The position numbers and the translations under genes were made by a program. The notes under the pieces are model-generated. The model was not told where the DNA came from. It saw only the letters and a list, made by a program, of their open reading frames with translations, and made no database searches. This document shows, piece by piece, positions 2,504 to 61,982 of a stretch of DNA of 64,000 bases (the stretch's first letter is position 1; every line of letters begins with the position of its first letter). Source of the stretch: a virus (taxonomy: Duplodnaviria; Heunggongvirae; Uroviricota; Caudoviricetes); the IMG/VR virus record IMGVR_UViG_3300009419_001390, one strand, 5' to 3'.

Positions 2504-3223
2504 ATGCAAGAAACAATCCTAAGTGAAAAAATTACAATCGTGATCCCTTGCAAGAACGAGGAGAATTACATTGGATACTTGTTATTACATCTACGCAATC
2601 AACTGATTGGTAGTACTAGAATTATTATTGCAGACTGTTCTACAGATAACACTCGAGAAGTGATTCAAAAGTTAAAGGGTAAATTGAATGTTGAAATCAT
2701 TGATGGTGGTCCAGTCAGCCAGGCCAAGAACCGCGGAGCTGCCTTGGTTACCACACCCTACATCTTGTTCATTGATGCTGATGTTCGCTTCTTCAATGTC
2801 AACACGATTCGTGATGCAGTAGCCAAATTGGAATCTAAGAACCTAGATCTACTAGGGCTGAACATCAAATGCTATGACAACGACAAACGTGCCAGCATTG
2901 GCTTTGCTGTGTTCAACGGTATCAATCGCGTTCTAAAACATTTCAGTCCATTTGCTGTGGGCGCATTCATGCTCACACGCAGAGACCGGTTTGAAGAGTA
3001 CGGCGGCTTTCCTGAGCAGATGTCAACTTCTGAAGACTACTTCCTATCTAGATGCTACAGCCCAAAAAAGTTTAGCATACTCAATCACTATTTTGGACAA
3101 GACAGCCGTAGGTTTAAGAAGATGGGCTATTTTGGTATGGCCAAGTACTTGGTCCAGAACTTTGTTAACCGCAACAACAAGAAGTACTGGGACAGTTTGG
3201 ACAACAGCAAATACTGGTCATGA
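2504..3223 (+). CDS. family 2 glycosyltransferase
   Basis: N-terminal ITIVIPCKNEE, DxD-like FIDADV, GT-A fold pattern. Confidence 0.6.
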   Translation: MQETILSEKITIVIPCKNEENYIGYLLLHLRNQLIGSTRIIIADCSTDNTREVIQKLKGKLNVEIIDGGPVSQAKNRGAALVTTPYILFIDADVRFFNVNTIRDAVAKLESKNLDLLGLNIKCYDNDKRASIGFAVFNGINRVLKHFSPFAVGAFMLTRRDRFEEYGGFPEQMSTSEDYFLSRCYSPKKFSILNHYFGQDSRRFKKMGYFGMAKYLVQNFVNRNNKKYWDSLDNSKYWS

Positions 3224-3276: not shown

Positions 3277-3322
3277 CCATGTGTTGCGTAACAGCGCACA
3301 TTTTCAAAAAGGAAATTTTCAA

Positions 3323-3880
3323 ATGAAGAAGTTTATCGCATTGGCCGCACTATTGGCCGCAAGCACTGCCTTTGCAGGCGGTTTTGGCTCTGTTGAATAC
3401 AGTGGTCGTGACGGCGTTGATGGTACAGCAGATGCTCGTGCCACCAAGGTAACCATGGGCACAGATATCAATCAACTGTTGAAGGCCGATTTCAGTCTAC
3501 GTCAAAAGACCAACACTGACAACGATCTCAGCGACACACGCCTGGAAGGTGGCCTAACAGCCACGCAACCAATTGGCGGCACTGGGTTCAGCGTGTATGG
3601 TCGTGGTGCAGTGGGTGAGAAGTTCAAGACTTCGGCCAACTATACCTACTACTCAGTGGAGCCAGGCATCAAGTATGCGGTGACTCCGGCACTGAGTGTC
3701 AAAGCAGGCTATCGCTATCGTGCCGCACTAGACAGTGCAAACGCAGACACCACTCGTACATACCGTTTGGGTGCTGAGTATGCACTGACCAAGAACTACT
3801 TTGTTGGCCTAGGCTACGATCAAGTTCGCGGTGACAGCACATACAATGCTACCAACGTCGCTGTTGGTTTCAAGTTCTAA
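3323..3880 (+). CDS. small outer-membrane beta-barrel protein (signal peptide, C-terminal Phe), paralog 1
   Basis: MKKFIALAALLAASTAFA signal peptide; alternating amphipathic strands; terminal VGFKF typical of OMP beta-signal. Confidence 0.55.
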   Translation: MKKFIALAALLAASTAFAGGFGSVEYSGRDGVDGTADARATKVTMGTDINQLLKADFSLRQKTNTDNDLSDTRLEGGLTATQPIGGTGFSVYGRGAVGEKFKTSANYTYYSVEPGIKYAVTPALSVKAGYRYRAALDSANADTTRTYRLGAEYALTKNYFVGLGYDQVRGDSTYNATNVAVGFKF

Positions 3881-4572: not shown

Positions 4573-5112
4573 ATGAAAACAGTTGGACACAAGTTAGAAA
4601 AATTCGCAGTCACGGGTGTCAAGCCTGGACAGCCAGAAGATGCGTTCTTCGAAATTACAGATGAGAGCTTTCCCGGCAAGTGGAAGGTAATTGTTTACTA
4701 TCCAAAAGACTTCACATTCGTTTGCCCTACAGAAATTGTAGCCTACGACAAACTAACAGGTGACTTTGCCGACCGTGATGCAGTCCTGCTTACAGGTTCA
4801 ACAGACAATGAGTTCTGTAAAGTCAGCTGGCAAACAGCTCATGCTGATTTGAAGAAAATCACACACAACCAGTTCGCTGACACACAACGTGGCGAGTTGA
4901 GTCTTATCGATCAATTAGGAGTTTTCTATGCTCCAGCAGGTGCCGCACTTCGCGCAACATTCATCGTTGATCCAGACAACGTTATCCAACACGTTACAGT
5001 CAACAACTTGAACGTAGGCCGTAGCCCAGAAGAAACACTTCGTGTTCTTGATGCGTTACAAACTGGCGAGCTGTGTGCATGTAACCGTACAGTTGGCGGT
5101 GAAACACTTTAA
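4573..5112 (+). CDS. ahpC: peroxiredoxin (AhpC/TSA family, 2-Cys type)
   Basis: FTFVCPTEI peroxidatic-Cys motif; resolving Cys near C-terminus (ELCAC); length 179 aa. Confidence 0.8.
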   Translation: MKTVGHKLEKFAVTGVKPGQPEDAFFEITDESFPGKWKVIVYYPKDFTFVCPTEIVAYDKLTGDFADRDAVLLTGSTDNEFCKVSWQTAHADLKKITHNQFADTQRGELSLIDQLGVFYAPAGAALRATFIVDPDNVIQHVTVNNLNVGRSPEETLRVLDALQTGELCACNRTVGGETL

Positions 5113-5291: not shown

Positions 5292-5504
5292 ATGAAACAA
5301 CAATTACTTAGTGCATTGGAAGCAAACTTTTCAGCACAACTGACCAAGCACAAAATGAATGTGGAGATCATGTTGAACAACCCTATGGCCATTCATGATC
5401 ACACTGACTGGATGGCGGCTGTGGAAACTGAAATTGCGCACATTGCGGAATATGAAGATAAACTAGAAGTGTTGCAAAAATACTTTGTTTCTGGAAAATA
5501 TTAA
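5292..5504 (+). CDS. hypothetical 70-aa protein
   Basis: ORF track; packed between ahpC and ahpD. Confidence 0.45.
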   Translation: MKQQLLSALEANFSAQLTKHKMNVEIMLNNPMAIHDHTDWMAAVETEIAHIAEYEDKLEVLQKYFVSGKY

Positions 5505-5505
5505 A

Positions 5506-6015
5506 ATGAATTTTATTGAATCAGTAAAAGGTGCGTTACCAGACTACGCCAAAGATACAAAATTAAATCTAGATGCGGTGTTACTGCGTAGCACACTAGA
5601 CGCAGATGTGGCCATGGGATGTGCCGTAGCCGCACTGGCCGCAACAGGCAATGGCAAAATTCTGTCAGTAATTTTAGCAGATGCTCCTGTACATGCAGAG
5701 TCAGCAATGACAGCCGCCAGCATCATGGCACAGAACAACGTATGGTATCCCTATGTTGAAATGGCAGATGATGCCGCACTCAAAGGTTTGCCAGCACAGT
5801 TACGCATGAATGCTATTGCAAGTCATGGTGGAACTACCAAAGCAAACTTTGAAGCATTCTCGTTGGCCGCAAGTATTGTGGGCAAGTGTCACTTCTGTGT
5901 TAAGGCACACTATGACACATTGAAGAACTCAGAAGGCTACACAGTGGAACAACTTCGTGACATTGGGCGCATTGCATCAGTTATGAATTCAGTTGCTAAA
6001 GTTCTTAACAGTTAA
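5506..6015 (+). CDS. ahpD: alkylhydroperoxidase AhpD-like (carboxymuconolactone decarboxylase family)
   Basis: GKCHFCVKAH matches the AhpD catalytic signature C-H-[YF]-C-x-x-x-H; about 170 aa. Confidence 0.6.
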   Translation: MNFIESVKGALPDYAKDTKLNLDAVLLRSTLDADVAMGCAVAALAATGNGKILSVILADAPVHAESAMTAASIMAQNNVWYPYVEMADDAALKGLPAQLRMNAIASHGGTTKANFEAFSLAASIVGKCHFCVKAHYDTLKNSEGYTVEQLRDIGRIASVMNSVAKVLNS

Positions 6016-6026
6016 TTGGAGACAAA

Positions 6027-6446
6027 ATGTTAGAATGTTTGATACTCGGAGATTCAATAGCAGTGGGCACATCACAGGCTAGACCTGAGTGTGTTAGTTA
6101 CAGCAAAGGCGGATGGAATAGTTGGCAATGGAACAAGGACTATCTTTCCAAAGCATCCAACCAACCCTCCAAAACAATTATCATCAGTCTAGGTGCTAAT
6201 GATCATAAAGGTGTCAAGACAGAAGCAGAACTACGTAAAATGCGCGAAGCGATCAAAGGAGATCGTGTGTACTGGATTGATCCAGGACAGGATCGTAAAC
6301 CTATTCCACACGATGCAATCGTTCGGATTGCTAAAGAGTACGGGGATACAATCATTGCTCGACCTAAAAATCACATGAGTGCTGACGGTGTACATCCTAC
6401 TGGTACAGGATACAAAATAATTGCTGAGCAAACAAAAGGCAAGTGA
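6027..6446 (+). CDS. SGNH/GDSL-family hydrolase
   Basis: N-terminal LILGDSIAVG (GDS block I) and C-terminal SADGVHPT (DxxH block V). Confidence 0.55.
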   Translation: MLECLILGDSIAVGTSQARPECVSYSKGGWNSWQWNKDYLSKASNQPSKTIIISLGANDHKGVKTEAELRKMREAIKGDRVYWIDPGQDRKPIPHDAIVRIAKEYGDTIIARPKNHMSADGVHPTGTGYKIIAEQTKGK

Positions 6447-6640
6447 TGCAAGTGAGAGTAAAAGACAATCCAGAAGACATTGGCCGATGTGGTTGTGGTC
6501 GTAGTCCAACCGGCAAGTGTTGTGGCTGGCATGGTCTCACCGAAGATGAATACAAGAATGAACTTGAGCTGTACGAATACAAAAAGCAAGCACAGGGTCT
6601 TTGGAATGACAGTTGCACCAGTGGCAGATCTGAACAGTAG
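6446..6640 (+). CDS. small Cys-rich protein (CGCG...CCGWHG)
   Basis: TGATG coupling to upstream gene; six Cys in 64 aa. Confidence 0.4.
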   Translation: MQVRVKDNPEDIGRCGCGRSPTGKCCGWHGLTEDEYKNELELYEYKKQAQGLWNDSCTSGRSEQ

Positions 6641-6758
6641 GCCTCGTGAATTTCACTAGCCAAGATTAATGATTTCCTGGATATGATTTGACCATTTTTT
6701 GTCGTATAATCTTCATACATACTAAGACATCAACAGTATGTCATTCAAGGAGAAAATT

Positions 6759-6833
6759 ATGAAATGGTCTACACCAACTGCACAAGACATGCGTTTCGGC
6801 TTCGAAATTACCATGTACATTGCAAATCGTTAA
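6759..6833 (+). CDS. pqqA: PqqA-like peptide (coenzyme PQQ precursor), MKWSTPTAQDMRFGFEITMYIANR
   Basis: 24 aa; AAGGAG SD; conserved E-x-x-x-Y core and about 60 percent identity to Pseudomonas/Acinetobacter PqqA ([23 protein letters not shown]) from memory; own terminator. Confidence 0.6.
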   Translation: MKWSTPTAQDMRFGFEITMYIANR

Positions 6834-6853
6834 TTTGTTAACAAAAGTACTAG

Positions 6854-6884
6854 AAAAAACCCTTGTTGATCAAGGGTTTTTTTG
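6854..6884 (+). terminator. rho-independent terminator (AACCCTT-loop-AAGGGTT + T7)
   Basis: follows pqqA-like gene. Confidence 0.6.
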
Positions 6885-6897
6885 TGGCCAAAAACGG

Positions 6898-6926
6898 TTG
6901 ACCTAAATGGCTCATTTTGTTATACT
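6898..6926 (+). promoter_or_regulatory. conserved early promoter box cggTTGACC-17-TATACT (copy 1 of 3)
   Basis: 33/36 nt identical to copy at 51005..51033, related copy at 20594..20622. Confidence 0.6.
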
Positions 6927-6953
6927 GTATGCTAGACACTAAGGAAACGGCGC

Positions 6954-7322
6954 ATGAAAGCATTTTTAGAAATTACAGAATGGGCAGATACCCAGTTCAA
7001 CTGCAATCATGTGTACTGGATGGATGATGCCCGAAACAAGATGCATGCCTATGCTCGTTTTGGTAATCCCAAAGACACTCAGACATTCCGAGCACCAATT
7101 CAAATTGACACCCGCGGACGCAAGTTTGTGGAAGTGCGCAATGACATCTACAACTGGACTGATACAAAAGTTGAGGTCAGTGCCAACCCAACCTGGACCA
7201 TTGAGGGTAGCAAAGGCGCCAAATATGTTGTAGAAAAAGATGGTTCAGTGTATAATTGCACTTGTGCTGGTTTCAAATTCCGCGGTGCTTGCCGCCACAT
7301 CGAAGAGGTTCAAAATGCTTAA
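6954..7322 (+). CDS. SWIM zinc-finger domain protein
   Basis: C-terminal NCTCAGFKFRGACRH fits CxCx(n)CxH; AAGGAAA SD. Confidence 0.45.
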   Translation: MKAFLEITEWADTQFNCNHVYWMDDARNKMHAYARFGNPKDTQTFRAPIQIDTRGRKFVEVRNDIYNWTDTKVEVSANPTWTIEGSKGAKYVVEKDGSVYNCTCAGFKFRGACRHIEEVQNA

Positions 7323-8622
7323 ACCATGGGAAGTAATTGCAGAGCTGGAAGGCGACAACAGCCGCTTGATCAAAGAAGCAGTGGTTCGTCGTGAAAGCGA
7401 AAACGGCAACGATGAACTGTTCCGTGGCTTCCGTGCCGCATATGATGCCATGATCACCTTTGGTGTTAAAAAGGTAGAGCCCAAGACAGGCGACGGCAAG
7501 GGATTAAAAGCAGAACGTTTCTGGCGTGTGGCACAGGAATTGAGTGAGCGCCGACTCACTGGCAATGCCGCACAAACTGAAATCAATGTCATGCGCCAGG
7601 ACGCCACAGAAGCAGAATGGAACATGTGGTATCGACGCATCCTAATCAAGGACATGCGCTGTGGTACCAGCGACAGCACAATCAACAAACATGCCCACGA
7701 ACGTTATCATGTGCCTGTGTTCTCTTGCCAACTGGCACATGACGGTGCCAATCATGAAAGCAAGGTCACAGGTGAAAAGCTGATTGAAGTCAAGCTGGAC
7801 GGTGTGCGTGTGATTACTATTGTGTACCCAAATGGACAAGTAGATCAGTACAGCCGCAATGGCAAAGAACTGGTCAACTTTCCGCATGTGAAACAACAAC
7901 TGGCCAAACATGCCTCACTGTTTGCAGAACCCATGGTCTTGGACGGTGAGATTATGAGTGCAAGTTTTCAAGACTTGATGAAGCAAGTGCATCGCAAGAG
8001 TGATGTCAAAGCCAATGACGCCATGTTGAACTTGTTTGACATGTTGACCCTGCGTGAGTTCCAAGCAGGCGTAGGTGAGCAACGTCAAATTGATCGTAGC
8101 ACTACACTACGAGCCTGGTACGACAGCATTGAAGCACACATGCCAGATGTCACTGTGGTAGGACAAGAGCTAGTGGACTTGGATACTGCAAAAGGTTTGG
8201 CTCGCTTCAAAATGATCAATACGCAAGCAGTGGCAGGCGGCTTCGAAGGTATCATGATCAAAGATCCAGAAGCACGTTACGAAACCAAACGCACAGTGGC
8301 CTGGCTCAAGCAAAAGCCTTTTATTGAAGTGAGCTTGACCGTGGTTGGCTTTGAAGAAGGCACAGGCAAGAACGCAGGCAAACTGGGTGCCTTGATTGTG
8401 GAAGGTGTGGATGACGGTAAGACTATCCGTACCAATGTGGGCTCGGGTCTTACTGATGCCTTGCGTGAAACAATCTGGGGTAGCCAAGCTCAAGTGTTGG
8501 GTAGCATAGTTGAAGTTCGTGCAGATGCCGCAACACAGAATCAAGACAGCGACGGTGCGTGGAGCCTGCGCTTTCCGCGATTCAAAGGCTTCCGTGGTTT
8601 TGCAGTGGGTGAAAAGTTATGA
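7315..8622 (+). CDS. ATP-dependent DNA ligase
   Basis: KLDGVR adenylation motif (KxDG); about 435 aa; alternative upstream start 7240. Confidence 0.75.
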   Translation: MLKPWEVIAELEGDNSRLIKEAVVRRESENGNDELFRGFRAAYDAMITFGVKKVEPKTGDGKGLKAERFWRVAQELSERRLTGNAAQTEINVMRQDATEAEWNMWYRRILIKDMRCGTSDSTINKHAHERYHVPVFSCQLAHDGANHESKVTGEKLIEVKLDGVRVITIVYPNGQVDQYSRNGKELVNFPHVKQQLAKHASLFAEPMVLDGEIMSASFQDLMKQVHRKSDVKANDAMLNLFDMLTLREFQAGVGEQRQIDRSTTLRAWYDSIEAHMPDVTVVGQELVDLDTAKGLARFKMINTQAVAGGFEGIMIKDPEARYETKRTVAWLKQKPFIEVSLTVVGFEEGTGKNAGKLGALIVEGVDDGKTIRTNVGSGLTDALRETIWGSQAQVLGSIVEVRADAATQNQDSDGAWSLRFPRFKGFRGFAVGEKL

Positions 8623-11090: not shown

Positions 11091-11882
11091 ATGCGTATTT
11101 TGACTCTTTCCGTTCTTGCCGCGGCTGTGTTGGCAACAGGTTGTACTCGTATTGAAACGGGTGAAGTTGGTGTGCGAGTTGGTTTTGACCGCCAGGTTCA
11201 GCCAGGCGAACTCATGCCTGGCTCATTCAATCAAGTGTTGATCGGTGATGTGCTCACATTTCCTATCAAGGACGTGAATGTCACATTAGAGAACATGACT
11301 CCTGTGGCCAAAGACAACTCAACCATGAAAGACTTTGATGCAGTGGTTGTTTACAACATCAATCCACAGCAGGTCAGTGAATTGTACGCAACCAAGAACA
11401 AAGCATTCCACGCTGAGTTCAAAGGTGATACCTATGTGATGTACAACTACATTGTACAAAATGCTCGTAACGCTATCTACAAAGCCGCTCGTAAGTATGA
11501 GGCCTTGGACATGGCCGACAATCGCGGTGAAATGGAAAAGTTCATCCAAGACGAGATTGTTCGCAACTTGGCTGAAGAAAAGTTAGACGGTACTATTATG
11601 ATCAGCCAAGTGTTGATTCGTAATGTTGTGCCAGCTGACTCTGTGGTTGAAAGTGCTAACGCATTGGTTCGTTCAAAGAACGAATTGAAGCAGAAGGAAG
11701 TTGAAGTCAAAACTGCTGAAGCCGAATCGCGTCGTATGGCAGCACTGGCCAACAACTCAGGTGCAAGTATTGCATTCATGCAAGCACAGGCCATGTTGAA
11801 CATCTCAGAAGGTATCAAGAACGGTCAAGTGCAGACCATTGTGGTGCCCTCAAACTTCAACGCATTGATGATGCCTAAATAA
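11091..11882 (+). CDS. SPFH/band-7 (prohibitin/stomatin-like) lipoprotein
   Basis: lipobox LATGC; TGEVGVRVGF... SPFH-like core followed by coiled-coil; AAGGAAA SD. Confidence 0.5.
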   Translation: MRILTLSVLAAAVLATGCTRIETGEVGVRVGFDRQVQPGELMPGSFNQVLIGDVLTFPIKDVNVTLENMTPVAKDNSTMKDFDAVVVYNINPQQVSELYATKNKAFHAEFKGDTYVMYNYIVQNARNAIYKAARKYEALDMADNRGEMEKFIQDEIVRNLAEEKLDGTIMISQVLIRNVVPADSVVESANALVRSKNELKQKEVEVKTAEAESRRMAALANNSGASIAFMQAQAMLNISEGIKNGQVQTIVVPSNFNALMMPK

Positions 11883-21327: not shown

Positions 21328-21596
21328 TCTACATCAATGTTGGTTTAAGTAACCCCTGGGGCCGACCCTTTGCCAATCTATGGAATCGGTCAGGCCTGAT
21401 CACCGACCACCTGGCCTGGGAAGCAGAGCTGTTGCAAACACGCACACTGATTGGATTTGAATTCAGTTATACTCGGCGACAAAGCCATGCTGGGCTTACC
21501 CTAGAACTAGCTGTGTTTGGTCACAGCATATCTTTCCAAATCTACGACACACGCCATTGGAATCACGTAACTGGCGCATGGGAAGTGCATCTATGA
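21324..21596 (+). CDS. hypothetical protein
   Basis: ATGA coupling. Confidence 0.4.
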   Translation: MIYINVGLSNPWGRPFANLWNRSGLITDHLAWEAELLQTRTLIGFEFSYTRRQSHAGLTLELAVFGHSISFQIYDTRHWNHVTGAWEVHL

Positions 21597-21733
21597 TTGA
21601 GTTTTTGCATGCTGTTGAATGGTTCATCTACGGCGCCATTGTGGGTTATTTTGCACACCCTGTTTGGCATCTGTTGACAAAAATTGTACAAGAAGCTAAA
21701 ATAGCTAAAGATGAGTGGAGAAACCCAAAATGA
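21593..21733 (+). CDS. small membrane peptide (46 aa)
   Basis: ATGA coupled at both ends. Confidence 0.3.
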   Translation: MIEFLHAVEWFIYGAIVGYFAHPVWHLLTKIVQEAKIAKDEWRNPK

Positions 21734-22107
21734 CAATGCACCTTGCACATCCTAGTTTGAGTCTTACTGGCAAAAAGCGCGGTAAGAAAAAGTTTGCATC
21801 AGCGGCTCATGCAGCCAAGGCACGTGAGCTGGATGACAGTTGGTCTGCTCTTATGGCCAAGTGGGGTCCTGCCAAAGTAGCGCCTGCACCCAAGAAACAA
21901 AAATTAGACTACAAACTAACTGTGCCCGCCGAGCGTAGCACACGACACATTCCTAGTAGAGATACTGGTGGTAATGCTACTCTAGCACCTGCCAAGGTCT
22001 ATACTGGCACTATGGTAAAAGGCATTGCTACAATGCACAAGTCAAACGCAGTGCCGGTCTTTTCAGATCAAGAAGCGATTGACATAAGTAAAATGCGCCG
22101 TGGATAA
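21730..22107 (+). CDS. hypothetical basic protein
   Basis: ATG after coupled stop. Confidence 0.4.
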   Translation: MTMHLAHPSLSLTGKKRGKKKFASAAHAAKARELDDSWSALMAKWGPAKVAPAPKKQKLDYKLTVPAERSTRHIPSRDTGGNATLAPAKVYTGTMVKGIATMHKSNAVPVFSDQEAIDISKMRRG

Positions 22108-22135
22108 CGGCTAACATATAGGAGAAGGTGCCCCT

Positions 22136-22357
22136 GTGGCTAAAGAAGGATTTGTTAATGTAACTGGTGTGGTAGAAGAAGTACTGCCCAATGCTACATT
22201 CCGAGTGGCACTCGAAAATAGCCAACATAAAATAATTGCGTATCTTGGCGGCAAATTACGCCAAAATAATATCAAAGTGCTCATGGGCGACACAGTTGAA
22301 CTAGAAATGAGCCCGTATGATTTGTCCCGCGGTAGGATCATATATCGTACTAAATAG
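22136..22357 (+). CDS. infA: translation initiation factor IF-1
   Basis: near full-length similarity to bacterial IF-1 (GVVEEVLPNATFRVALENS...MSPYDLSRGRIIYR); GTG start; AGGAGAAGG SD. Confidence 0.8.
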   Translation: MAKEGFVNVTGVVEEVLPNATFRVALENSQHKIIAYLGGKLRQNNIKVLMGDTVELEMSPYDLSRGRIIYRTK

Positions 22358-22361
22358 TCGT

Positions 22362-22925
22362 ATGAGTACCATACGACAACTAATTTCACTTGTGGAAAGC
22401 AAGGAAAAGAAAGATCTTGTGCAGGCAACATTGCCTTACAAACGCACAGATCTTGATCCTGTGAAATCCAAAGATACCCTGGACTATCACTACGGCACGT
22501 TGTATCGAGGTTATGTTGATCGATACAATGCCGGCGAAGGCGATGCAGACTTCAACGAAGCAGGTGCGTTTCTACACAACATATATTTTACACAACTACA
22601 ATCACCTGTGTCTGGCAACAAACCTGAAGGCGCCAGTGCAGAACTGATCAATCGTAAATTTGGTACATATCTTGATTTCCAAAAACAACTGGAAAAACAA
22701 GCCATGAGCATACAAGGGTCAGGCTGGGTGTATCTCAGCAGATCTGGCGAAATCAAAACAATCAAAAATCATCAGATCAAAAAAGACATTGCACTGCTAA
22801 TAGATTGGTGGGAACATGCCTGGGCACTGGATTATCAAGCAGACAAGGCCAAATACTTAAAAAATATATGGCGTATTATAAACTGGGAAACTGTGAATCG
22901 AAGAATATATGGAGGCATCAAATGA
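22362..22925 (+). CDS. Fe/Mn superoxide dismutase homolog
   Basis: LPY...YHYG...YV N-domain and [13 protein letters not shown]-domain; all four metal ligands (His, His, Asp, His) alignable to E. coli SodA. Confidence 0.6.
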
Positions 22926-23251
22926 ATATACTAGAACTCAATCCTAGTGCAGTGGAAAAAATTCGGGACATCCTGGCCGAGGAAAACAATCCCAAGATTA
23001 AACTGCGCATATTTGTGCAGGGCGGAGGGTGTTCGGGTATGCAGTATGGCTTTACCCTAGACGAAGAAACCAACGAAGATGACTTTACTATGGATTTCGA
23101 CGGTGTTCCGTTGTTGGTAGATAGTATGAGCAGTCAGTACTTACAAGGGGCTACAGTGGATTATAAGGAAGATCTCATGGGGGCAGAATTCAAGATAATC
23201 AACCCTAATGCGCAAACTTCATGTGGTTGCGGTAGCAGTTTCAGCGTCTAA
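22922..23251 (+). CDS. iron-sulfur cluster insertion protein (IscA/ErpA/HesB family)
   Basis: [11 protein letters not shown] and C-terminal SCGCGSSF motifs. Confidence 0.7.
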
Positions 23252-23280
23252 AAGCCAAATTCCTTTATCCCAACACCTTC

Positions 23281-23288
23281 ATAAATAT
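23281..23288 (+). promoter_or_regulatory. T4-type late promoter-like motif ATAAATAT, 19 nt upstream of fibre gene ATG
   Basis: matches TATAAATA core; same spacing at 30585. Confidence 0.35.
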
Positions 23289-23306
23289 CAAATATGAGGG
23301 TGAATA

Positions 23307-26300
23307 ATGTCTCAGCAGATAATAGATATTGGTAGTGGCGCTGGTGCGGGGGATGGCGATGATCTTCGCACGGCGTTTGACAAAGTCAACCAAAACTTCG
23401 CTAACATCTACAGCGGAAATGTAGCAGTTCAAGCCAACACGTTGGTGTATTCCGTTGCTGGAAAACAAGGTAATGTACAGCTAGCATGGTTTGACGTAAC
23501 TGGTGTAGCAAGCAATGTTGACGTAAGCCAACTGCGTTCAAGTATGGCAGCAAATTCTGCCGCTGATCGAGCCTACACTGACGCCGCAATAAGCAGTCTG
23601 GGCCCATTGCCCAATATAACTGTAACCGGCGGCACCATTGCCAATGCTACCATTAGCAATGCCGAAATCACTGCTGGTAACATCACAGTAACCAACACAG
23701 CCACTGTGAATGGCGCATTGGTTGTAGACGGTCCCGCTTCGGTCACCGAAAACCTTGTGGTTGGACAAACCCTCACAGTCAACACCCTGAGATTCTCTGA
23801 CAACAGTAGTATGAACACTGTTGTTAACCTAACACCAATCAGCAATGCTGTGTTGGGTGCTAATGCACGTGTGGCCGCAGCCAATGTTGAAATTGGCAAC
23901 CTACGTGCCAATATTGAAGCGGCAAATTCCAGCATTGTATCTGTGCAAAGTAGCATCACTACTTTAACATCAAATGCTACCACTCAAGCTCTGGCAATTG
24001 GAGCAGTGACCAGCAATGTCAGCGTACTACTATCCAACGTCAGTAGTGTCTGGAGCAATGCTGTTTCTCAAGCTGTCCAGATCAATGCTCTTAGAGCAAA
24101 CATTAACGCAGCCAATGCCATAATCACCAGTGGTGTTGTGACCACTGCACAAATGTCAGCGGCCAACGTTGAAATTGACAATCTACGTGCCAACGTCACA
24201 GCAGCCAATGCGGCCATAGTTTCTTTGAGAGCACAAACAGATGCCAACGCAGGTGCTCAACACAATAGTATTGCAGGCATACGTGCCAACGTCACAGCAG
24301 CCAATGCGGCCATTGTAACAGCAAATTCTGCGCTCAAGGCTTATACTGATTCAGCAATCAGCAGTTTGACTACTAGCACCAGTGGCAACGCTGGTGTGCA
24401 AGCATTGGCAATCAATTCTCTACGTGCCAACATTGCCGCGGCCAATTCAGCTATTGCCGCCGCAAACATAACAGTTGCCAACATACAGATATCTGAACTA
24501 CGTGCCAACATTGATGCGGCCAATGCAGCCATTGCGGCTGTTACTGTAGCATGGACTGCCAATGCCGCAACACAAGCAACACAAATTAACACGCTCACAG
24601 CCAATGCTGGGGCCCAGACTACCAGTCTAAATATTCTCACAAGCAATGCGTCAGCACAAGGCAGTGCTATCAGTTCTTTGCAGGCCAACATTGCCGCGGC
24701 CAATGCAGCCATTGCCGCAATCGCAGTACCCAATTTATCAGGCAACGTTTTGGTTGGCAACATCCAAGGTTACCATGGCAACTTTAGCGTGGTGTCTGGC
24801 ACTGTGCAAACTGCCGCACAGCCAAACATTACCACAGTTGGTACTCTTGGCAACCTGGTGGTCTCCGGCAATATCACTGCTGGCAGAGTAACTGCATCTG
24901 TTGTTGATGGCACATTGACCAATGGTGTACAAGCAGGTATCACCGGCGTTGGTACGCTTGGATCGTTGACCGTGACAGGTAATGTCACAACTGGAAATGT
25001 AAGTGGTACTACAGGTACATTTACCAACATTGTTGGAAACTTGCTCACAACTGCACAACCAAATATTACCACAGTTGGTACTCTTGGTTCGCTTGCTGTG
25101 ACAGGCAATATTGATTCTGGCAACATCAACACCCTTAATGCCAACATTGCCACAAACCGATTGACAGCTAATACTGTGGCTGGCACTTTGATTACTCCGG
25201 TACAAACCAACATCACTCGAGTTGGTACATTGGTCAACTTGGCTGTTACTGGCAATACCACCAGCGGGAATGTAACTGCTTCTGGTACGGTACAAGCTGC
25301 TGGACTTTCGGGTACTGTATTAACAGCCGAACAACCTAACATTACCACAGTTGGTAATCTCACAAGCCTAATAGTAGTTGGCAACCTAGGTGTTATTGGA
25401 AACATAATCAATTCTGTCAACAGTGCCATAGTAATTGGCACTGTGGTTAGTGATTTTACTCTAGCAAACACATTAGTTTCTAGCAACATTAGTGGCACAC
25501 TATTCACTGCTCAGCAACCCAATATAACCAGCGTTGGCACACTGACATCAATTACCACCAGTGGCAATCTTGTGGCATCCAATGTTGTTGCCAACACACA
25601 AATATCAGCCCCTACACTGGTTGGTAACTTGACTGGTCCTACTGCCACAATATCCGGCAATATTCTTTCAGGCAATGTTTGGGTCCTGGGCAGAATATAT
25701 GCAGATGGCAACATTGACGGCAATATTGTTAACGCCACGGTGGGCATCAAGACTGAGGAGGTATTTGCCAACATTGGTTATTTTACTGATCTTAACGGAA
25801 CAGTTAAAACCAATGCACAACCATTCATTACCGCTATTGGTACCTTGTCAGCATTGTCAGTTGATGGCCCAGTTAGTATTACTGGTAGTCAATTTGTAGC
25901 ACAAGATTTTTATGTTACCGGAAACTTGTTTGTAAACGGCAACACCACCACGGTCAGCGCAGGCAATGTAACCACCAGCGACAAAGACCTAACACTGGCC
26001 AATGGTGCTGTCAACTCAACCGCCGCACGTGGTTCTGGTATACTTATTGGTCAAGGCGGAGCATACGGTAATCTAACCATTTATGATGGTGTATGGACCA
26101 CACCAAACGCATTTGCCATTGCAGGCAATGTGAGTACAGGCAATGTAAGTGGCTCTAAAGGATCGTTCAGCATTGTTGGCGGAACACTAGAAACAGCCGC
26201 ACAGCCAAATATCACAAGCGTTGGTACACTGACTTCTGTTACAACAACCGGTGCAGTGACAGCAGCCAACATTACAGTAGCTGGCGCTACAATACAAGAC

Positions 26301-29300
26301 ATAAACGCAACCAACGGTAACATCCAAATATTACGACCAGAACATGTGTTTGCGTCTGGGAACGTAATAGCCACAGTTGGTGAATTTACTGGCCTGTCAG
26401 GTTCGTTGCGTACAGCACTACAACCAAACATTACTCAAGTTGGTACACTAGGCACATTGTCTGTAACAGGCAATGTTGGCACAGGCAATGTAAGTGGCAC
26501 TACTGGATCATTTACCAATATTGTTGGAACTGTTCTCACTGCATCACAACCCAACATCACCACTGTTGGTAATCTTGGCAATTTGAATGTAACTGGCACA
26601 GCAACCGTTGGCGGATTGGTAATCCAAGGCGGTGGTGCAGGATCTGCATTTGCTGTAGAGAATATTACCGCTACAGCAAATCTAACAACTTCTAATCTAA
26701 CAGTGACTGGTATTGCCAATTTGGTTAGCTTTACTGGTACTGTTCTAAACAACGCACAACCTTTCATTACCAGTGTAGGCACTTTGACTACCTTGGATGT
26801 GACTGGCAATGTTGATGCAGGCAATGTCAATGCCACAACTGGTCATTTTGCAAATGTCACTGCTACAACTTTAGTACGTGGTGAAAATGTATCTGCCAAT
26901 GCCAATGTCACTGCAACAAATGGTGTGTTTACCGATGTGTATGGTACACTACAAACTGCTAGTCAAACAAATATCACGTCAGTTGGCACATTAATTTCAC
27001 TTGGCGTGACAGGCAATGTCACAACTGGCAACGTTAGTGGCGCAACTGGTACATTTACCAACATACGCGGTGCCGTGCTTGATGCCAGCCAAACCAACAT
27101 CACTACTATTGGTACACTGTCTGGATTGGCAGTAACTGGCACAACTGCACTTGCAAATGTAACTGCCAATGGTGCAACATTCAAAGACATCAATGCAACT
27201 TACGCCAATATTGGCTCAGAGGCAAACATTGCTGGTAACGTAACTGCTGGTAACATCAGCGCAAGCAAAGGCACGTTTACACAAGTACAAGGCACACTAC
27301 AAACCAATTCGCAACCTTTTATTACTGAAGTTGGACTGTTAGGGAATCTAGATGTTGCTGGCACTGTACTAGCCCCTGCAGTTGGTAATGTTAGTACTCT
27401 ACTGCGTGGTTACATAGTCAACAACTTCCAACCAAATATCACTGAACTTGGTGCATTGACATCGTTGTCAGTTATTAATGTGGTCAACACTGCAAACATC
27501 ACTGCTGCCGGTGCAGTGTTGCGTGACTTGAATGTTACCACAGCAAATATTACGCTTGAAGCAAACATTGGTGGAAATGTAACATCAGCCAATATCAGCG
27601 CATTCAAAGGCACCTTTACACACATAGACGGAACACTGCTAACAAATGCACAACCGTTTATAACCAGCATTGGCACTTTGCCAAATTTGAGCGTAACTAG
27701 TAATATTGGTGTAGGCAATGTCAATGCTGTGTCCACAAACACAACTGGTAACTCTGTATCAGCCAACACACAGGTAACTGGCACAGCACAAATTGCCAAC
27801 TTGACAGTGTCTGGAAACACTGCGCTGGTCAACAATGTAAATGCACTGAGCAGTTTGAATGTGACTAATCAGTTGATTGTGTTGGGTTCCAATGTAAATG
27901 CATTCAGCGCCAACTTCCAGGCAAGTTCTGCGTCAATCACAAACACACTGTCAGTTGACACATTGTTTGTTAGATCAACAGCGGAATCAATTGAGGCAGC
28001 AACTGGAGCATTGCAAGTTGCTGGTGGCCTTGGTGTAGTTGGAAACGTAAGCGTTGATGGACTCATTACTTCACAAGGTAATTTACGTTCAGCCAAAAGT
28101 CTTGAAGTACTAGACAGTGCATTTATTGGTAATTCTATCTATCTAAATGACATTGGTGGCGGTGGCGGAACAGGAATTTATTCTAACGTAGCAAACGTTT
28201 CACTATTCCCAAGTTCTGTTACTAATCTTGATATTGGTGGCGAAGCAACATTGATCAATGTTGGTGCTATTAGCGGATTGGGTATCACTAGAGTTCGCAA
28301 CAACCTGTTGGTTGATGGATCTTTCTTTATTGCTACAGTTGGTAATATAGGCTCTGGCAACGTCACGGTCAACAACGATCTGCGTGTGCTCAACAATGCA
28401 AACGTAATCAACTCATTTACTACCAACACGTTGACTGCAACAAACAGTACATCCGGCAGCGTCACAGCCAACGTTGTTACTGTGGCTGATGTTGTTACTG
28501 TGGGTAATCTTTCAGCGGCAGCAAATGCAACTAGTTTGAGCACCGGGGCATTACGAGTGCGCGGTGGTATAAGTGCTACTGGCAATATCATTGTTGGTTT
28601 TGGTAACGTAGGTTACAATGCTGGTAAAGAAATTGTTTACATCAACAGCAACGTTGCACAGATAACAGCAGCCAATATCCAACAGCTAAGTGGTGCCTTG
28701 CAGGTACGAGGCGGCGCATCAATTGGTGGTAACCTGTATGTTGCTGGTGAAGCGACCATTATTGGTAACGTGAACTTCACAGCGTTCTTGGCAGCATCTA
28801 TCAACAACACACCAATTGGCAATGCAACACCCAGCTCAGGTGCATTTACCACGCTGGCGATTGGCGCAGGAAACGTTCGCCCACCATCACGTCCAGCAAT
28901 CAGTTTTGATTTTGCAAACAGTCGCAAACTAGATACAATATTGAATTTTTCTAGAACTGGGACAGCCACATATTATGATGCAAGAGGATTCCTGGTCACT
29001 GCTCCTAGTCAGACACCTAGATTTACCTATGATCCTAGCACATTGCGTTCACGTGGTATTCTTATTGAAGAGAGCCGCACAAACTTGTATAGAGAAAGCA
29101 ACAGCTTTGGCAATGCCAATGTATACACCACTTTGCAGGCATCAATCACAACAGTAGCACATGCTACCTCAAGTCCGGATGGAAACTATAATGCTTTCAA
29201 ATTGGTAGAAGATAGTAGTACCGGTCTTCATGCTGTTTATCAACAGGCGCCTTATGTTCCAACAATATCAGCTGGTACCACATACACAGCCAGTGCGTTT

Positions 29301-30140
29301 GTCAAACGCGGAGAACGAGATCAAGTGTCATTGGTTTTCTTTGCTGAGTCAAACCCAGCAATATTTGACTTGACCAATGGAACAATTGATTTCCAAGGAC
29401 CTGACTATCGCAGTAGCATGCAAACATTGGCCAATGGCTGGTACCGTATCCAAAGTACCATAAACAAAACCAATACCAGCGGCAACGTGGCAATTGCATC
29501 AGCAACAGGTGGATCAGTTTACTATACTGGCAATGGCACCAATGGCGTGTACATTTATGGATTCCAAGTGGAAGAAGGCGGATTTGCGACCAGTTATATT
29601 CCAACCACAACCATTGCCAACACACGCAGTTCAGAAAGCCTAACAGTTTCTAGCATTGAATTTTTACGCCGTTACAACCAAGTTGAAAACAGTGTGTTGG
29701 TTGATGCCACGCTAGACTACAATCCTAGCACATTGGTAGACAACAATAGACGTAGCACTATTGTCAGTTTCAATGATGGTACTGCAAGCAATCGCATTGC
29801 AATCCTGGCAGAAACTAAATCAGCCACTGCTGAACGCACAGCTAATTTAATTATTGTCAAAGCTGGCACAGTGGAATCCAATGCCAATATTACGTTAGGC
29901 AACTTGACCACTGTGGTCAACAACAACCGACTGGCTTCATATTTCCAGTCTGGCACATTGGCCACTGCGGCCAATGGAACTGGCACAACAACTGCTGTGG
30001 CCGGCAACGTAAGCTCATCTATCAATACAATGAATATTGGCAGTGGCCCAGGAACTAACTTTATCAACGGTACTATTGCAAAAATACAGGTATGGCCAGC
30101 ACTGGTCACTGGATCGCAATTATCTACACTAACACAATAA
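23307..30140 (+). CDS. giant tail-fibre protein (2277 aa) with conserved N-terminal anchor motif, LRAN-x-AAN repeats, about 40-aa TAAQPNITTVGTLGSL repeats, and GALxVxGGxGIxGNxYV motifs
   Basis: GAGGGTG SD; N-terminal IGSGAGAGDGDDLRTAFDKVNQNF shared with two other fibre genes; extreme Thr/Asn/Gly/Val/Ala bias. Confidence 0.7.
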   Translation: MSQQIIDIGSGAGAGDGDDLRTAFDKVNQNFANIYSGNVAVQANTLVYSVAGKQGNVQLAWFDVTGVASNVDVSQLRSSMAANSAADRAYTDAAISSLGPLPNITVTGGTIANATISNAEITAGNITVTNTATVNGALVVDGPASVTENLVVGQTLTVNTLRFSDNSSMNTVVNLTPISNAVLGANARVAAANVEIGNLRANIEAANSSIVSVQSSITTLTSNATTQALAIGAVTSNVSVLLSNVSSVWSNAVSQAVQINALRANINAANAIITSGVVTTAQMSAANVEIDNLRANVTAANAAIVSLRAQTDANAGAQHNSIAGIRANVTAANAAIVTANSALKAYTDSAISSLTTSTSGNAGVQALAINSLRANIAAANSAIAAANITVANIQISELRANIDAANAAIAAVTVAWTANAATQATQINTLTANAGAQTTSLNILTSNASAQGSAISSLQANIAAANAAIAAIAVPNLSGNVLVGNIQGYHGNFSVVSGTVQTAAQPNITTVGTLGNLVVSGNITAGRVTASVVDGTLTNGVQAGITGVGTLGSLTVTGNVTTGNVSGTTGTFTNIVGNLLTTAQPNITTVGTLGSLAVTGNIDSGNINTLNANIATNRLTANTVAGTLITPVQTNITRVGTLVNLAVTGNTTSGNVTASGTVQAAGLSGTVLTAEQPNITTVGNLTSLIVVGNLGVIGNIINSVNSAIVIGTVVSDFTLANTLVSSNISGTLFTAQQPNITSVGTLTSITTSGNLVASNVVANTQISAPTLVGNLTGPTATISGNILSGNVWVLGRIYADGNIDGNIVNATVGIKTEEVFANIGYFTDLNGTVKTNAQPFITAIGTLSALSVDGPVSITGSQFVAQDFYVTGNLFVNGNTTTVSAGNVTTSDKDLTLANGAVNSTAARGSGILIGQGGAYGNLTIYDGVWTTPNAFAIAGNVSTGNVSGSKGSFSIVGGTLETAAQPNITSVGTLTSVTTTGAVTAANITVAGATIQDINATNGNIQILRPEHVFASGNVIATVGEFTGLSGSLRTALQPNITQVGTLGTLSVTGNVGTGNVSGTTGSFTNIVGTVLTASQPNITTVGNLGNLNVTGTATVGGLVIQGGGAGSAFAVENITATANLTTSNLTVTGIANLVSFTGTVLNNAQPFITSVGTLTTLDVTGNVDAGNVNATTGHFANVTATTLVRGENVSANANVTATNGVFTDVYGTLQTASQTNITSVGTLISLGVTGNVTTGNVSGATGTFTNIRGAVLDASQTNITTIGTLSGLAVTGTTALANVTANGATFKDINATYANIGSEANIAGNVTAGNISASKGTFTQVQGTLQTNSQPFITEVGLLGNLDVAGTVLAPAVGNVSTLLRGYIVNNFQPNITELGALTSLSVINVVNTANITAAGAVLRDLNVTTANITLEANIGGNVTSANISAFKGTFTHIDGTLLTNAQPFITSIGTLPNLSVTSNIGVGNVNAVSTNTTGNSVSANTQVTGTAQIANLTVSGNTALVNNVNALSSLNVTNQLIVLGSNVNAFSANFQASSASITNTLSVDTLFVRSTAESIEAATGALQVAGGLGVVGNVSVDGLITSQGNLRSAKSLEVLDSAFIGNSIYLNDIGGGGGTGIYSNVANVSLFPSSVTNLDIGGEATLINVGAISGLGITRVRNNLLVDGSFFIATVGNIGSGNVTVNNDLRVLNNANVINSFTTNTLTATNSTSGSVTANVVTVADVVTVGNLSAAANATSLSTGALRVRGGISATGNIIVGFGNVGYNAGKEIVYINSNVAQITAANIQQLSGALQVRGGASIGGNLYVAGEATIIGNVNFTAFLAASINNTPIGNATPSSGAFTTLAIGAGNVRPPSRPAISFDFANSRKLDTILNFSRTGTATYYDARGFLVTAPSQTPRFTYDPSTLRSRGILIEESRTNLYRESNSFGNANVYTTLQASITTVAHATSSPDGNYNAFKLVEDSSTGLHAVYQQAPYVPTISAGTTYTASAFVKRGERDQVSLVFFAESNPAIFDLTNGTIDFQGPDYRSSMQTLANGWYRIQSTINKTNTSGNVAIASATGGSVYYTGNGTNGVYIYGFQVEEGGFATSYIPTTTIANTRSSESLTVSSIEFLRRYNQVENSVLVDATLDYNPSTLVDNNRRSTIVSFNDGTASNRIAILAETKSATAERTANLIIVKAGTVESNANITLGNLTTVVNNNRLASYFQSGTLATAANGTGTTTAVAGNVSSSINTMNIGSGPGTNFINGTIAKIQVWPALVTGSQLSTLTQ
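24186..24313 (+). repeat. exact 32-nt direct repeat (cgtgccaacgtcacagcagccaatgcggccat) at 24186..24217 and 24282..24313, in frame, within fibre gene
   Basis: read directly from sequence. Confidence 0.7.
24780..27700 (+). repeat. degenerate tandem repeat of about 117-123 nt (about 40 aa) inside the fibre gene
   Basis: recurring ...CAACCAAATATTACCACAGTTGGTACTCTTGG... blocks. Confidence 0.5.
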
Positions 30141-44631: not shown

Positions 44632-45078
44632 ATGACAATCGACTTAAACAAATATTCTGAGTTCGTTGGTGCTGTGACCAGCGAACCTTCTCGTGATCTA
44701 ACCACATTCATAGATCGGCTAGATCAGCTGGACGGTAACTATGAACTGTTTGAAGGCGAGACTGAATTGCGACATGGTCCAGATATCAATGTACCACTGT
44801 TGCTCACAGCATGTTTAGGACTTGCCGCAGAATCGGGTGAGTTCATTGAAATTCCAAAGAAAGTGTTCTTCCAAGGCAAACCGCTAACAGAAGAAAATGT
44901 ATTCCATATGAAACGAGAACTGGGTGATGTCATGTGGTACTGGGTCAATGCTTGTAGAGCTTTGAACCTAGATCCAAACGAGGTCATTGCAGAGAACGTA
45001 AATAAACTGAAGGCTCGTTACCCAGGTGGTGAGTTTGACGTAAACCATAGCGAAAATCGACAACAAGGAGATATCTAA
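44632..45078 (+). CDS. mazG: MazG-like nucleoside triphosphate pyrophosphohydrolase (paralog 2)
   Basis: LGLAAESGEFIE and KRELGDVMWYWVNACRAL motifs. Confidence 0.6.
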   Translation: MTIDLNKYSEFVGAVTSEPSRDLTTFIDRLDQLDGNYELFEGETELRHGPDINVPLLLTACLGLAAESGEFIEIPKKVFFQGKPLTEENVFHMKRELGDVMWYWVNACRALNLDPNEVIAENVNKLKARYPGGEFDVNHSENRQQGDI

Positions 45079-47697: not shown

Positions 47698-47915
47698 GAT
47701 TCAAACTAGACATTCCTGCTAACCCTGTTCAAGGGGATACCACAGCATGGAAACCAGTATTCTTACTGTTCCCAAAACAAATTGAAAATCAAATTGTTTG
47801 GCTTGAGACCGTGAAGTATCGTAAAATATACATGATCAAACAACGTCCTACCAAAGCCGGCCCTGTGCTTGGCGGTGCGTGGGAACATGAATGGAAGTTA
47901 CCGGAGAACGTATGA
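47694..47915 (+). CDS. hypothetical protein
   Basis: ATGA coupling both ends. Confidence 0.4.
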   Translation: MRFKLDIPANPVQGDTTAWKPVFLLFPKQIENQIVWLETVKYRKIYMIKQRPTKAGPVLGGAWEHEWKLPENV

Positions 47916-48829
47916 AAGAATTGTGGGTAGAAAAATACCGTCCCAAGACCATGGGCGAATATGTGTTCATTGATGACACACAGCGTGATCAAGTTGCGGC
48001 TTGGGTCAAAGATGGACACATCCCACATTTGTTGCTGAGTGGAGGTCCTGGCACTGGCAAGACCACACTAGCACGTATGCTGATCAATGAGCTCAAGATT
48101 GACGAATACGATGTGATGCAGATCAATGCCAGTAACGAAACCAAGGTTGAGATCATGCGTGACAAGGTACTTGGCTTTGCAAGTACCATGCCGTTTGGTG
48201 AGTTCAAAGTTATCCTGTTAGACGAGGCAGACTATCTAAGTCCCAACTCACAGGCATTGTTGCGTAATGCAATGGAAACATATCACGCCAGTGTGCGTTT
48301 TATATTCACTTGCAATGCGCCACACAAGATTATTCCTGCACTGCATTCACGGTGCCAGGGTTTTCATATTGCCAAACAGGATCATACAGAGTTTACAGCT
48401 AGAGTGGCCACTGTGTTGGTAACAGAAGGCATTGATTTTGATATTGACACACTGGACAGTTATGTCAAAGCAACATATCCTGATCTGCGTAAATGTTTGA
48501 ATCTGGTGCAATTGAACGGACAAGATGGCGCTCTCAAGAAACCACGTGAAGGTGACAAGTCTGTAAGTGACTGGAAACTTGACACTGTGGAACTGTTCAA
48601 ATCTGGCAAAATTCGCGAAGCACGTCAATTGCTATGCACACAAGCGGCTCCAGAAGAAATGGAAGATGTATTCCGTTGGATGTATGACAACGTCGACATC
48701 TGGGGCAAAACACCAGAACAACAAGACTCTGCTATCTTAATCATTCGCAAAGGTTTGGTCAACCATACCATGTGTGCTGATTCTGAAATCAATTTGAGTG
48801 CTACAATAATTGAGCTTACACAACTTTAA
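47912..48829 (+). CDS. sliding-clamp loader AAA+ subunit (T4 gp44 / RFC small subunit-like)
   Basis: Walker A GGPGTGKTT, Walker B ILLDEAD, SRC motif (HSRCQGF). Confidence 0.75.
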   Translation: MKELWVEKYRPKTMGEYVFIDDTQRDQVAAWVKDGHIPHLLLSGGPGTGKTTLARMLINELKIDEYDVMQINASNETKVEIMRDKVLGFASTMPFGEFKVILLDEADYLSPNSQALLRNAMETYHASVRFIFTCNAPHKIIPALHSRCQGFHIAKQDHTEFTARVATVLVTEGIDFDIDTLDSYVKATYPDLRKCLNLVQLNGQDGALKKPREGDKSVSDWKLDTVELFKSGKIREARQLLCTQAAPEEMEDVFRWMYDNVDIWGKTPEQQDSAILIIRKGLVNHTMCADSEINLSATIIELTQL

Positions 48830-61976: not shown

Positions 61977-61982
61977 ATGCGC

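Follow-up and report, generated by a model that had tools for sequence, protein, structure and literature searches.

Why should a tailed phage encode, in close succession, a translation initiation factor, a superoxide dismutase and an iron–sulfur cluster carrier, and do the three belong to a single process? The question is raised by positions 22136-23251 of a 64,000-nucleotide (nt) stretch (hereafter the window) of the IMG/VR virus record IMGVR_UViG_3300009419_001390 (Caudoviricetes), where infA (encoding initiation factor IF-1), a homolog of the Fe/Mn superoxide dismutases (SOD; family SodFM) and erpA (encoding an A-type iron–sulfur, Fe-S, carrier) follow one another. On balance we favor the answer that the SOD homolog and ErpA constitute a phage module which protects and re-supplies Fe-S clusters in oxygen, IF-1 being a genuine but mechanistically separate and lineage-specific operon partner. 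The individual genes are of known kinds; what is new is a compact phage clade of SODs that lacks the gateway residue His30, together with the recurrent pairing of this clade with Fe-S genes.

The operon order is basic protein, infA, compact sodFM and erpA, with a tail module just downstream (genes immediately 3' match phage tail, baseplate-wedge and virion structural families), in a window whose genes run nearly all rightward at a G+C content of ~44%:

21674-21702, plus strand: sigma-70-like promoter match (TTGACA-17-TAAAAT, 11/12) 5' of the operon, a consensus match only
21715-22107, plus strand: basic protein of 130 amino acids (aa), phrog_27048 (PHROG, 2.1e-29), likely the first gene of the operon
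22136-22357, plus strand: infA, IF-1, 73 aa, GTG start (TIGR00008, Pfam eIF-1a)
22357-22377, plus strand: 8-bp RNA hairpin enclosing the SOD start codon, just past the infA stop
22362-22925, plus strand: Fe/Mn-SOD homolog, 187 aa, ATG start (Pfam, alignments, AlphaFold, Foldseek, substitution ratios)
22922-23251, plus strand: erpA, A-type Fe-S carrier, 109 aa (NF010147, Pfam Fe-S_biosyn)

The junctions are of the translational-coupling type that an earlier note on this DNA had described: a 4-nt gap separates the infA stop (TAG, 22355-22357) from the SOD ATG, and an ATGA overlap (22922-22925) joins the SOD stop to the erpA start, with AGGAGAAGG (22120-22128) preceding the infA GTG and GGAGG (22911-22915) preceding the erpA start. 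Co-translation of infA, the SOD gene and erpA is predicted from this layout. The ATG at 22362 was taken as the SOD start and a longer open reading frame (ORF) from 22317 in the program-made list was discarded; a minus-strand ORF is also present at 22111-22431, and the plus-strand genes account fully for the region. The basic protein gave no match in Pfam and NCBIfam searches, and a very basic phrog_27048 protein co-occurs upstream of IF-1 in ~25 related loci. The hairpin around the SOD start codon (-11 kcal/mol, z -3.2, 3/200 shuffles folding equally well) was considered as a general coupling device and set aside, being a local feature kept only in the nearest relatives (L005 and L006).

The ratio of nonsynonymous to synonymous substitution (dN/dS) is 0.017 and 0.045 for the SOD gene (the lowest of the three), 0.05-0.16 for IF-1 and 0.13 for ErpA; all three genes are therefore under purifying selection and are no chance ORFs. 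Profile scores confirmed, at the same coordinates, the gene identities that the earlier note had assigned. IF-1 reaches 96.7 bits against the TIGR00008 equivalog (cut-off 61.15), a full-length match covering residues 3-71, and 3.2e-21 against Pfam eIF-1a; it would be a genuine initiation factor, with a predicted role in 30S initiation. ErpA scores 160.7 bits against the NF010147 equivalog (cut-off 117) and 1.1e-20 against Pfam Fe-S_biosyn, and its translation holds the three ligand cysteines (Cys36 in GGGC36SG, Cys101 and Cys103 in SC101GC103GSSF), as expected of an ordinary three-cysteine A-type carrier with a putative role in cluster transfer. The description of these genes as host-like did not hold if it is taken to mean copies lately acquired from a host: ErpA shares ~53% identity with its enterobacterial counterpart, no sequence in the phage collection exceeds 57% identity to IF-1, and the SOD clade occurs almost only on phage contigs (see below).

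The SOD homolog matches both Pfam domains of the family above their gathering scores (Sod_Fe_C 7e-24, Sod_Fe_N 5.5e-9), the N-terminal match spanning profile positions 6-41 of 82 only, and scores 86.2 bits against the SodB equivalog (cut-off 348) and 49.5 bits against that of SodA (cut-off 363). An AlphaFold model (predicted local distance difference test, pLDDT, 89; predicted template-modeling score, pTM, 0.85; residues 1-14 disordered) places it in the two-domain SodFM fold of an alpha-hairpin and a C-terminal alpha/beta domain. The best Foldseek matches of this model are active SODs (Bacteroides fragilis SodFM2, archaeal enzymes and human MnSOD, at template-modeling scores of 0.77-0.84), and a viral structure library contained just two SodFM proteins, one of which is 65% identical and already named "superoxide dismutase." Two MAFFT alignments of 85 and 16 sequences, each spanning the clade and canonical enzymes, were made alongside HMMER alignments of the homolog to solved SODs as a separate comparison (the Escherichia coli SodA, SodB and human SOD2 sequences served as rulers only). 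Relative to cellular SODs, the phage clade has an N-terminal alpha-hairpin shorter by ~20 residues and two C-domain loops shorter by 4-5 residues. It also has a 22-aa N-terminal extension (22362-22427; motif (I/F)R..I.L(V/L)E, with E12 and L19 invariant across the clade) that finds no counterpart among the cellular SODs in the alignments.

Within this compact frame the metal site is complete. Residues H43, H72, D148 and H152 correspond to FeSOD H26, H73, D156 and H160 in both the HMMER and MAFFT comparisons (H72 aligning with a one-residue gap); the four ligands are invariant across the clade in the MAFFT alignments, so that the retention claimed by the earlier note against E. coli SodA stood in the 85-sequence alignment also, and the misalignment of ligands that it had named as grounds for refutation was not found. 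The same note had called unusual the whole segment that stands in place of HHTKHH. Its YHYG half is an ordinary Fe-type motif (B. fragilis SodFM2 reads IDYHYGKHLQTYV), whereas the second half does depart from the family: the HXXXHH gateway motif reads HXXXLY, His30 being replaced by Leu47, in line with the claimed loss of the gateway His, and His31 by Tyr48. Tyr163, the cross-dimer partner of His30, is likewise replaced (Ala155 here; Ala or another non-Tyr residue in the clade), and the two positions covary, such that Tyr163 is nearly always absent where position 30 is Leu and nearly always present where it is His. The remainder of the site is retained, including the Tyr34 equivalent (Y51), Trp122, Trp150, the dimer-bridging Glu151, and a His (His137, invariant in the clade) at the C-terminal water-coordinating position, while the N-terminal Gln position of SodFM2 enzymes is occupied by Ala69. 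Even clade members of only ~35% identity show no change at the ligands, Tyr34, the bridging Glu, Trp122 or the C-terminal His.

What this remodeling does to catalysis can be gauged from the human enzyme, in which Tyr166 (the Tyr163 counterpart) acts cooperatively with His30 (PMC9208312). There, H30N and Y166F each lower k1 ~7-fold, with a double-mutant loss below multiplicative, and H30V lowers it ~300-fold by blocking the funnel (PMC9208312). Because these mutant data cut both ways, activity is likely and the rate uncertain; the phage protein most likely still dismutates superoxide, as judged from its active-site residues. For the metal, the second sphere suggests an Fe-preferring or cambialistic enzyme as the best guess: Fe was preferred by 9/13 tested enzymes having the C-terminal His, and Leu at the D-2 position (L146 here) is the residue of the cambialistic Staphylococcus aureus enzyme (PMC10172142).

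The loss of both His30–Tyr163' hydrogen-bond partners together across the clade, and the near-abolition of human MnSOD k1 by a hydrophobic replacement of His30 (PMC9208312), could also be read as the mark of a protein with little or no dismutase activity, co-opted as a metal-binding partner of the Fe-S machinery, either an iron donor or holder or a local shield of the carrier or scaffold. The conserved N-terminal extension, which cellular enzymes lack, and the linkage of the SOD to three different Fe-S systems (below) would suit such a protein. We consider this doubtful, since the protein retains Tyr34, the water-coordinating His, Trp122, Trp150 and the bridging Glu, residues that matter for catalysis, not for holding a metal. 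We know of no precedent for a SodFM protein as an iron donor.

Both the origin of the window and the reach of the clade follow from where the SOD relatives are found. The source appears to be a widespread, uncultured lineage of tailed jumbo phages, because SOD relatives lie on >587 IMG/VR viral contigs and also on metagenome-assembled contigs, the longest of them 355-360 kb. A DNA-level search of 21500-24000 against phages gave only a 65-nt match of chance size, indicating no cultured close relative, and tblastn of a 1186-aa structural protein against phages returned zero matches. A search of 185,579 bacterial and archaeal species genomes turned up a relative at least 39% identical on only five contigs, all of them from metagenome-assembled genomes (MAGs): one each from Burkholderiaceae, Polaromonas and Methylophilaceae, and two from a Haliscomenobacter bin. 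The latter two (L087 and L088; NZ_JBBAKG010000049.1 and NZ_JBBAKG010000036.1) encode the basic protein, IF-1, SOD, ErpA and a repeat-rich tail protein in that order, as the window does, and are probably mis-binned jumbo-phage DNA; the Methylophilaceae contig has phage-type neighbours around its SOD relative, and the remaining two are short fragments, one with erpA directly after SOD. The compact SOD clade is essentially phage-specific, because the MAG contigs are few and several have phage gene order or neighbours. The habitat of the phage is probably freshwater, and its hosts may be freshwater Betaproteobacteria.

Which genes accompany the SOD homolog was surveyed in the best 80 viral loci (60-87% SOD identity), the carrier count being taken over the 72 with enough flank. 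In 59/72 loci an A-type carrier (32 ErpA-type, 27 divergent IscA-type) follows SOD on the same strand at no more than 2 kb; IscU, too, is encoded within this distance downstream in 27 loci, and IF-1 is directly upstream in only 20/76. The trio that the earlier note treated as a cluster is present in the window, but the conserved unit is SOD plus carrier. The variable neighbours of SOD in relatives are all iron- or oxygen-related: a 4Fe-4S ferredoxin (~6566-6894) between SOD and ErpA in the closest viral relative (L006), an alternative oxidase (6532-7119) after SOD in L044, SufB-SufC (5494-7655) after the SOD copy of L090, IscU-IscA beside SOD in L056 and L054, and a Dps-like ferritin (1331-1798) beside SOD in L171. 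More distant members retain the arrangement too, the whole order of IF-1, SOD, small ORF, carrier and giant protein at 42% SOD identity (P0143), and, at 37% (P0165), a carrier whose frame overlaps that of SOD over 4 nt, a Dps-like ferritin being encoded close by.

The rarity of an adjacent IF-1 is what would be seen if the three genes had separate jobs (translation, general oxidative stress, general Fe-S supply) and were together by inheritance only, as parts of an accessory island. The same can be said of the SOD loci of phage PA5oct, Vibrio phage 2.275.O and L168, where the SOD homolog lies near ClpS (and, in the two cultured phages, also near S21, IF-3, Hsp20 or FtsH) with no carrier, and of P0127 and P0139, which have no Fe-S neighbour. 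We allow this account a minority but real chance. It fits poorly with the fact that the SOD–carrier link outlasts a swap of carrier type (ErpA-type versus IscU with IscA-type), that the link holds at 37-42% identity with frames often overlapping or near-abutting, and that the other genes inserted there again concern iron or oxygen. A universal Fe-S linkage of the clade was considered and is excluded by P0127, P0139, PA5oct and Vibrio phage 2.275.O.

Proximity to translation genes invites a further explanation, in which the SOD-fold protein would serve the translation or transcription machinery in a structural or regulatory capacity, comparable to PAP4/FSD3 and PAP9/FSD2 of the plastid RNA polymerase; SOD-fold subunits also exist in fungal mitoribosomes. 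In the window the homolog adjoins IF-1, in Vibrio phage 2.275.O it has IF-3 and S21 as neighbours and in PA5oct it has S21; its start codon sits in a hairpin right past the infA stop, and when its sequence is compared with those of solved structures, PAP4 and PAP9 are among the matches. By fold, nevertheless, the best matches are free, active SODs, with zero ribosomal chains in the Foldseek top 50, the full catalytic site is strongly constrained, and most relatives have no translation-gene neighbour; we regard this explanation as very improbable.

Some side observations concern the SOD flanks in relatives. The L090 SOD is frameshifted in its N-terminal half, and is either a pseudogene or an assembly error. 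In ~12 relatives SOD and ErpA are separated by a 340-nt gap in which a conserved ORF of ~95 aa is found on the minus strand (e.g., ~6562-6886 in L018; also L076, L027, L045, L048, L057, L059, L072, L078, L084, L013 and L040) with a four-Cys pattern (..FRCDCCQGVFKRDKG..YHVCGNCDAKKFAQ..) and no match in a Pfam search. A UvdE-type UV-damage endonuclease is encoded just upstream of SOD in 35/66 related loci (among them L018, L056, L076 and L025); no such gene lies just upstream of SOD in this window.

We return to the proposal of a SOD–ErpA module, for which other genes of the window supply candidate partners:

4573-5112, plus strand: AhpC-like peroxiredoxin (Pfam AhpC-TSA 2e-19; TIGR03137 108 bits, under cut-off)
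5485-6015, plus strand: AhpD-family alkylhydroperoxidase (TIGR00777 1e-33, under cut-off)
48829-49938, plus strand: radical SAM/SPASM-like protein (CX3CX2C at residue 29, 15 Cys), a candidate Fe-S client
53030-54964: full-length DnaK (980 bits, above the equivalog cut-off)
61977-62801: DnaJ-like co-chaperone without the middle region of the DnaJ model

The AhpC/AhpD neighbours could be a phage peroxide-removal pair complementing the SOD. The radical SAM/SPASM-like protein scores 26.4 bits against Pfam Radical_SAM, just under the cut-off of 29.5 (its gene begins at the last stop-codon base of an RFC-like clamp-loader gene, 47891-48829). A SOD whose peroxide would pass to a peroxiredoxin, together with a carrier and a client of Fe-S clusters, is a coherent set. 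The suggestion of the earlier note that the carrier serves Fe-S proteins fits both this client in the window and the ferredoxin, IscU and SufBC found beside SOD in related phages.

We infer metal preference, cluster transfer and physiological role alike from sequence, and on that basis the mechanism would run as follows. The compact SOD, with its complete metal site, remodeled substrate gateway and putatively remodeled dimer contact, would dismutate superoxide and so shield clusters from it, while ErpA would hand Fe-S clusters to apo-proteins and thereby re-supply them over the course of a prolonged infection under oxygen. Those likely to benefit are Fe-S enzymes of phage and host alike, the radical SAM/SPASM protein of the phage being an example, and the AhpC/AhpD pair would clear the peroxide made by the SOD. 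IF-1 would, separately, probably bias or sustain initiation on host ribosomes.

Other genes of the window touch this scheme less directly. The Hsp70 at 53030-54964 was considered as the Fe-S chaperone HscA and rejected, its HscA score falling under the cut-off and its DnaK score above. Downstream of the operon, a 2277-aa tail protein (23307-30140) with "..AQPNITxVGTLG.." repeats starts 55 nt past erpA, with no terminator-like site between the two genes, and the order of carrier followed by giant protein recurs in L004, L169 and L171. The window further encodes a MazG-like pyrophosphatase (44632-45078), a family-2 glycosyltransferase (2504-3223), an outer-membrane beta-barrel-like protein (3281-3880) and an SPFH/Band-7 protein (11091-11882).

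Several observations weigh against the module. The SOD homolog falls far under the NCBIfam SodA/SodB equivalog cut-offs, dismutase activity is a prediction for the whole clade, and the Leu at position 30 could, by analogy to human MnSOD H30V (PMC9208312), make for a slow enzyme. On the genomic side, the 80 surveyed loci were the best-scoring ones and hence are not independent samples, phage synteny can outlast by descent without functional coupling, and the loci of P0127, P0139 (a 356,683-bp contig), PA5oct and Vibrio phage 2.275.O come without an Fe-S neighbour. Both the promoter match (such matches being no more numerous across the region than in shuffles) and the start-codon hairpin are pattern-level evidence.

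Fe/Mn SODs are among the best-studied metalloenzymes, with His30 and Tyr166 treated as near-universal catalytic residues; the phage clade is large and strongly conserved, and has lost both residues from an otherwise retained active site, and it therefore amounts to a natural experiment on the proton-relay/gateway model. Since Fe-S genes of interchangeable kinds recur beside its SOD, jumbo phages of oxic freshwater may invest in the protection of Fe-S metabolism, and Fe-S protection during infection would be a testable addition to viral auxiliary functions. A bolder version of the argument, which we hold to be a speculative long shot, is that scavenging superoxide in bulk is not the main task of the compact SodFM clade, which would instead be a partner dedicated to the viral proteins of Fe-S assembly and transport; it might dock by means of the N-terminal peptide to guard or load nascent clusters, or carry out an altered metal chemistry. 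If true, this would be a new functional class in an ancient family and a virus-specific component of Fe-S biogenesis.

How does the locus compare with known systems? Literature searches for phage Fe/Mn SODs surfaced only papers on a poxvirus Cu/Zn SOD homolog, and the division of cellular enzymes into SodFM1-5 by water-coordinating residue, in which SodFM4 has lost the last His of HXXXHH, mentions no viruses (Sendra et al, 2023, PMC10172142). With SodFM, and with B. fragilis SodFM2 in particular (PDB 8avl/8avm), the phage protein shares the predicted fold, the four ligands, Tyr34, the bridging Glu and Trp122; the C-terminal water-coordinating His is common to the phage clade and archaeal/actinobacterial SodFM3/4, and the loss of the last HXXXHH His is common to the clade and SodFM4. 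Unlike cellular SodFM, the phage SOD has Leu30, a non-Tyr residue at 163, no N-terminal Gln, a short hairpin and short loops, and the 22-aa extension; unlike SodFM4, it also lacks His30, and its hairpin is ~20 residues shorter in place of the long N-terminal helices of the tetrameric type. By its aligned motifs the clade matches none of SodFM1-5, with a hairpin shorter than that of any group aligned.

Counterparts in cultured phages are PA5oct gp223 and NVP2275O_049 of Vibrio phage 2.275.O, which belong to the same compact clade (~41% identity, Leu at position 30, short hairpin) and are annotated as hypothetical, sodB or Mn/Fe SOD; their genes, unlike that of the window, have no adjacent Fe-S carrier. 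The gp223 record (41% identity) bears a note of electrospray tandem mass spectrometry (ESI-MS/MS), pointing to expression of a homolog; in PA5oct this method tied 93 gene products to virion particles (PMC7318152).

ErpA resembles its E. coli and proteobacterial counterparts in length and in its three ligand cysteines, scoring above the equivalog cut-off, and differs from cellular ErpA in being phage-encoded and in the overlap of its start with the stop of a SOD gene. To our knowledge, no case of cellular erpA linked to sod genes has been described. Virus-encoded Fe-S biogenesis genes (IscU, SufA/IscA-type) occur in environmental viromes, and the phage carrier is likewise a virus-encoded component of that pathway; a systematic pairing of phage Fe-S genes with a dedicated SOD was not found in the literature searched. 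As to IF-1, the earlier note had called phage infA uncommon, which it is, but huge phages with IF1 are already on record (Al-Shayeb et al, 2020, PMC7162821), so that the window adds one more translation factor to those of huge phages and is not new as such. The huge-phage genes (PMC7162821; Lak phages, Sinorhizobium phage Phosso) likewise encode full-length, bacterial-type IF-1 in a very large genome; unlike them, the infA of the window shares its operon with genes for a SOD and an Fe-S carrier.

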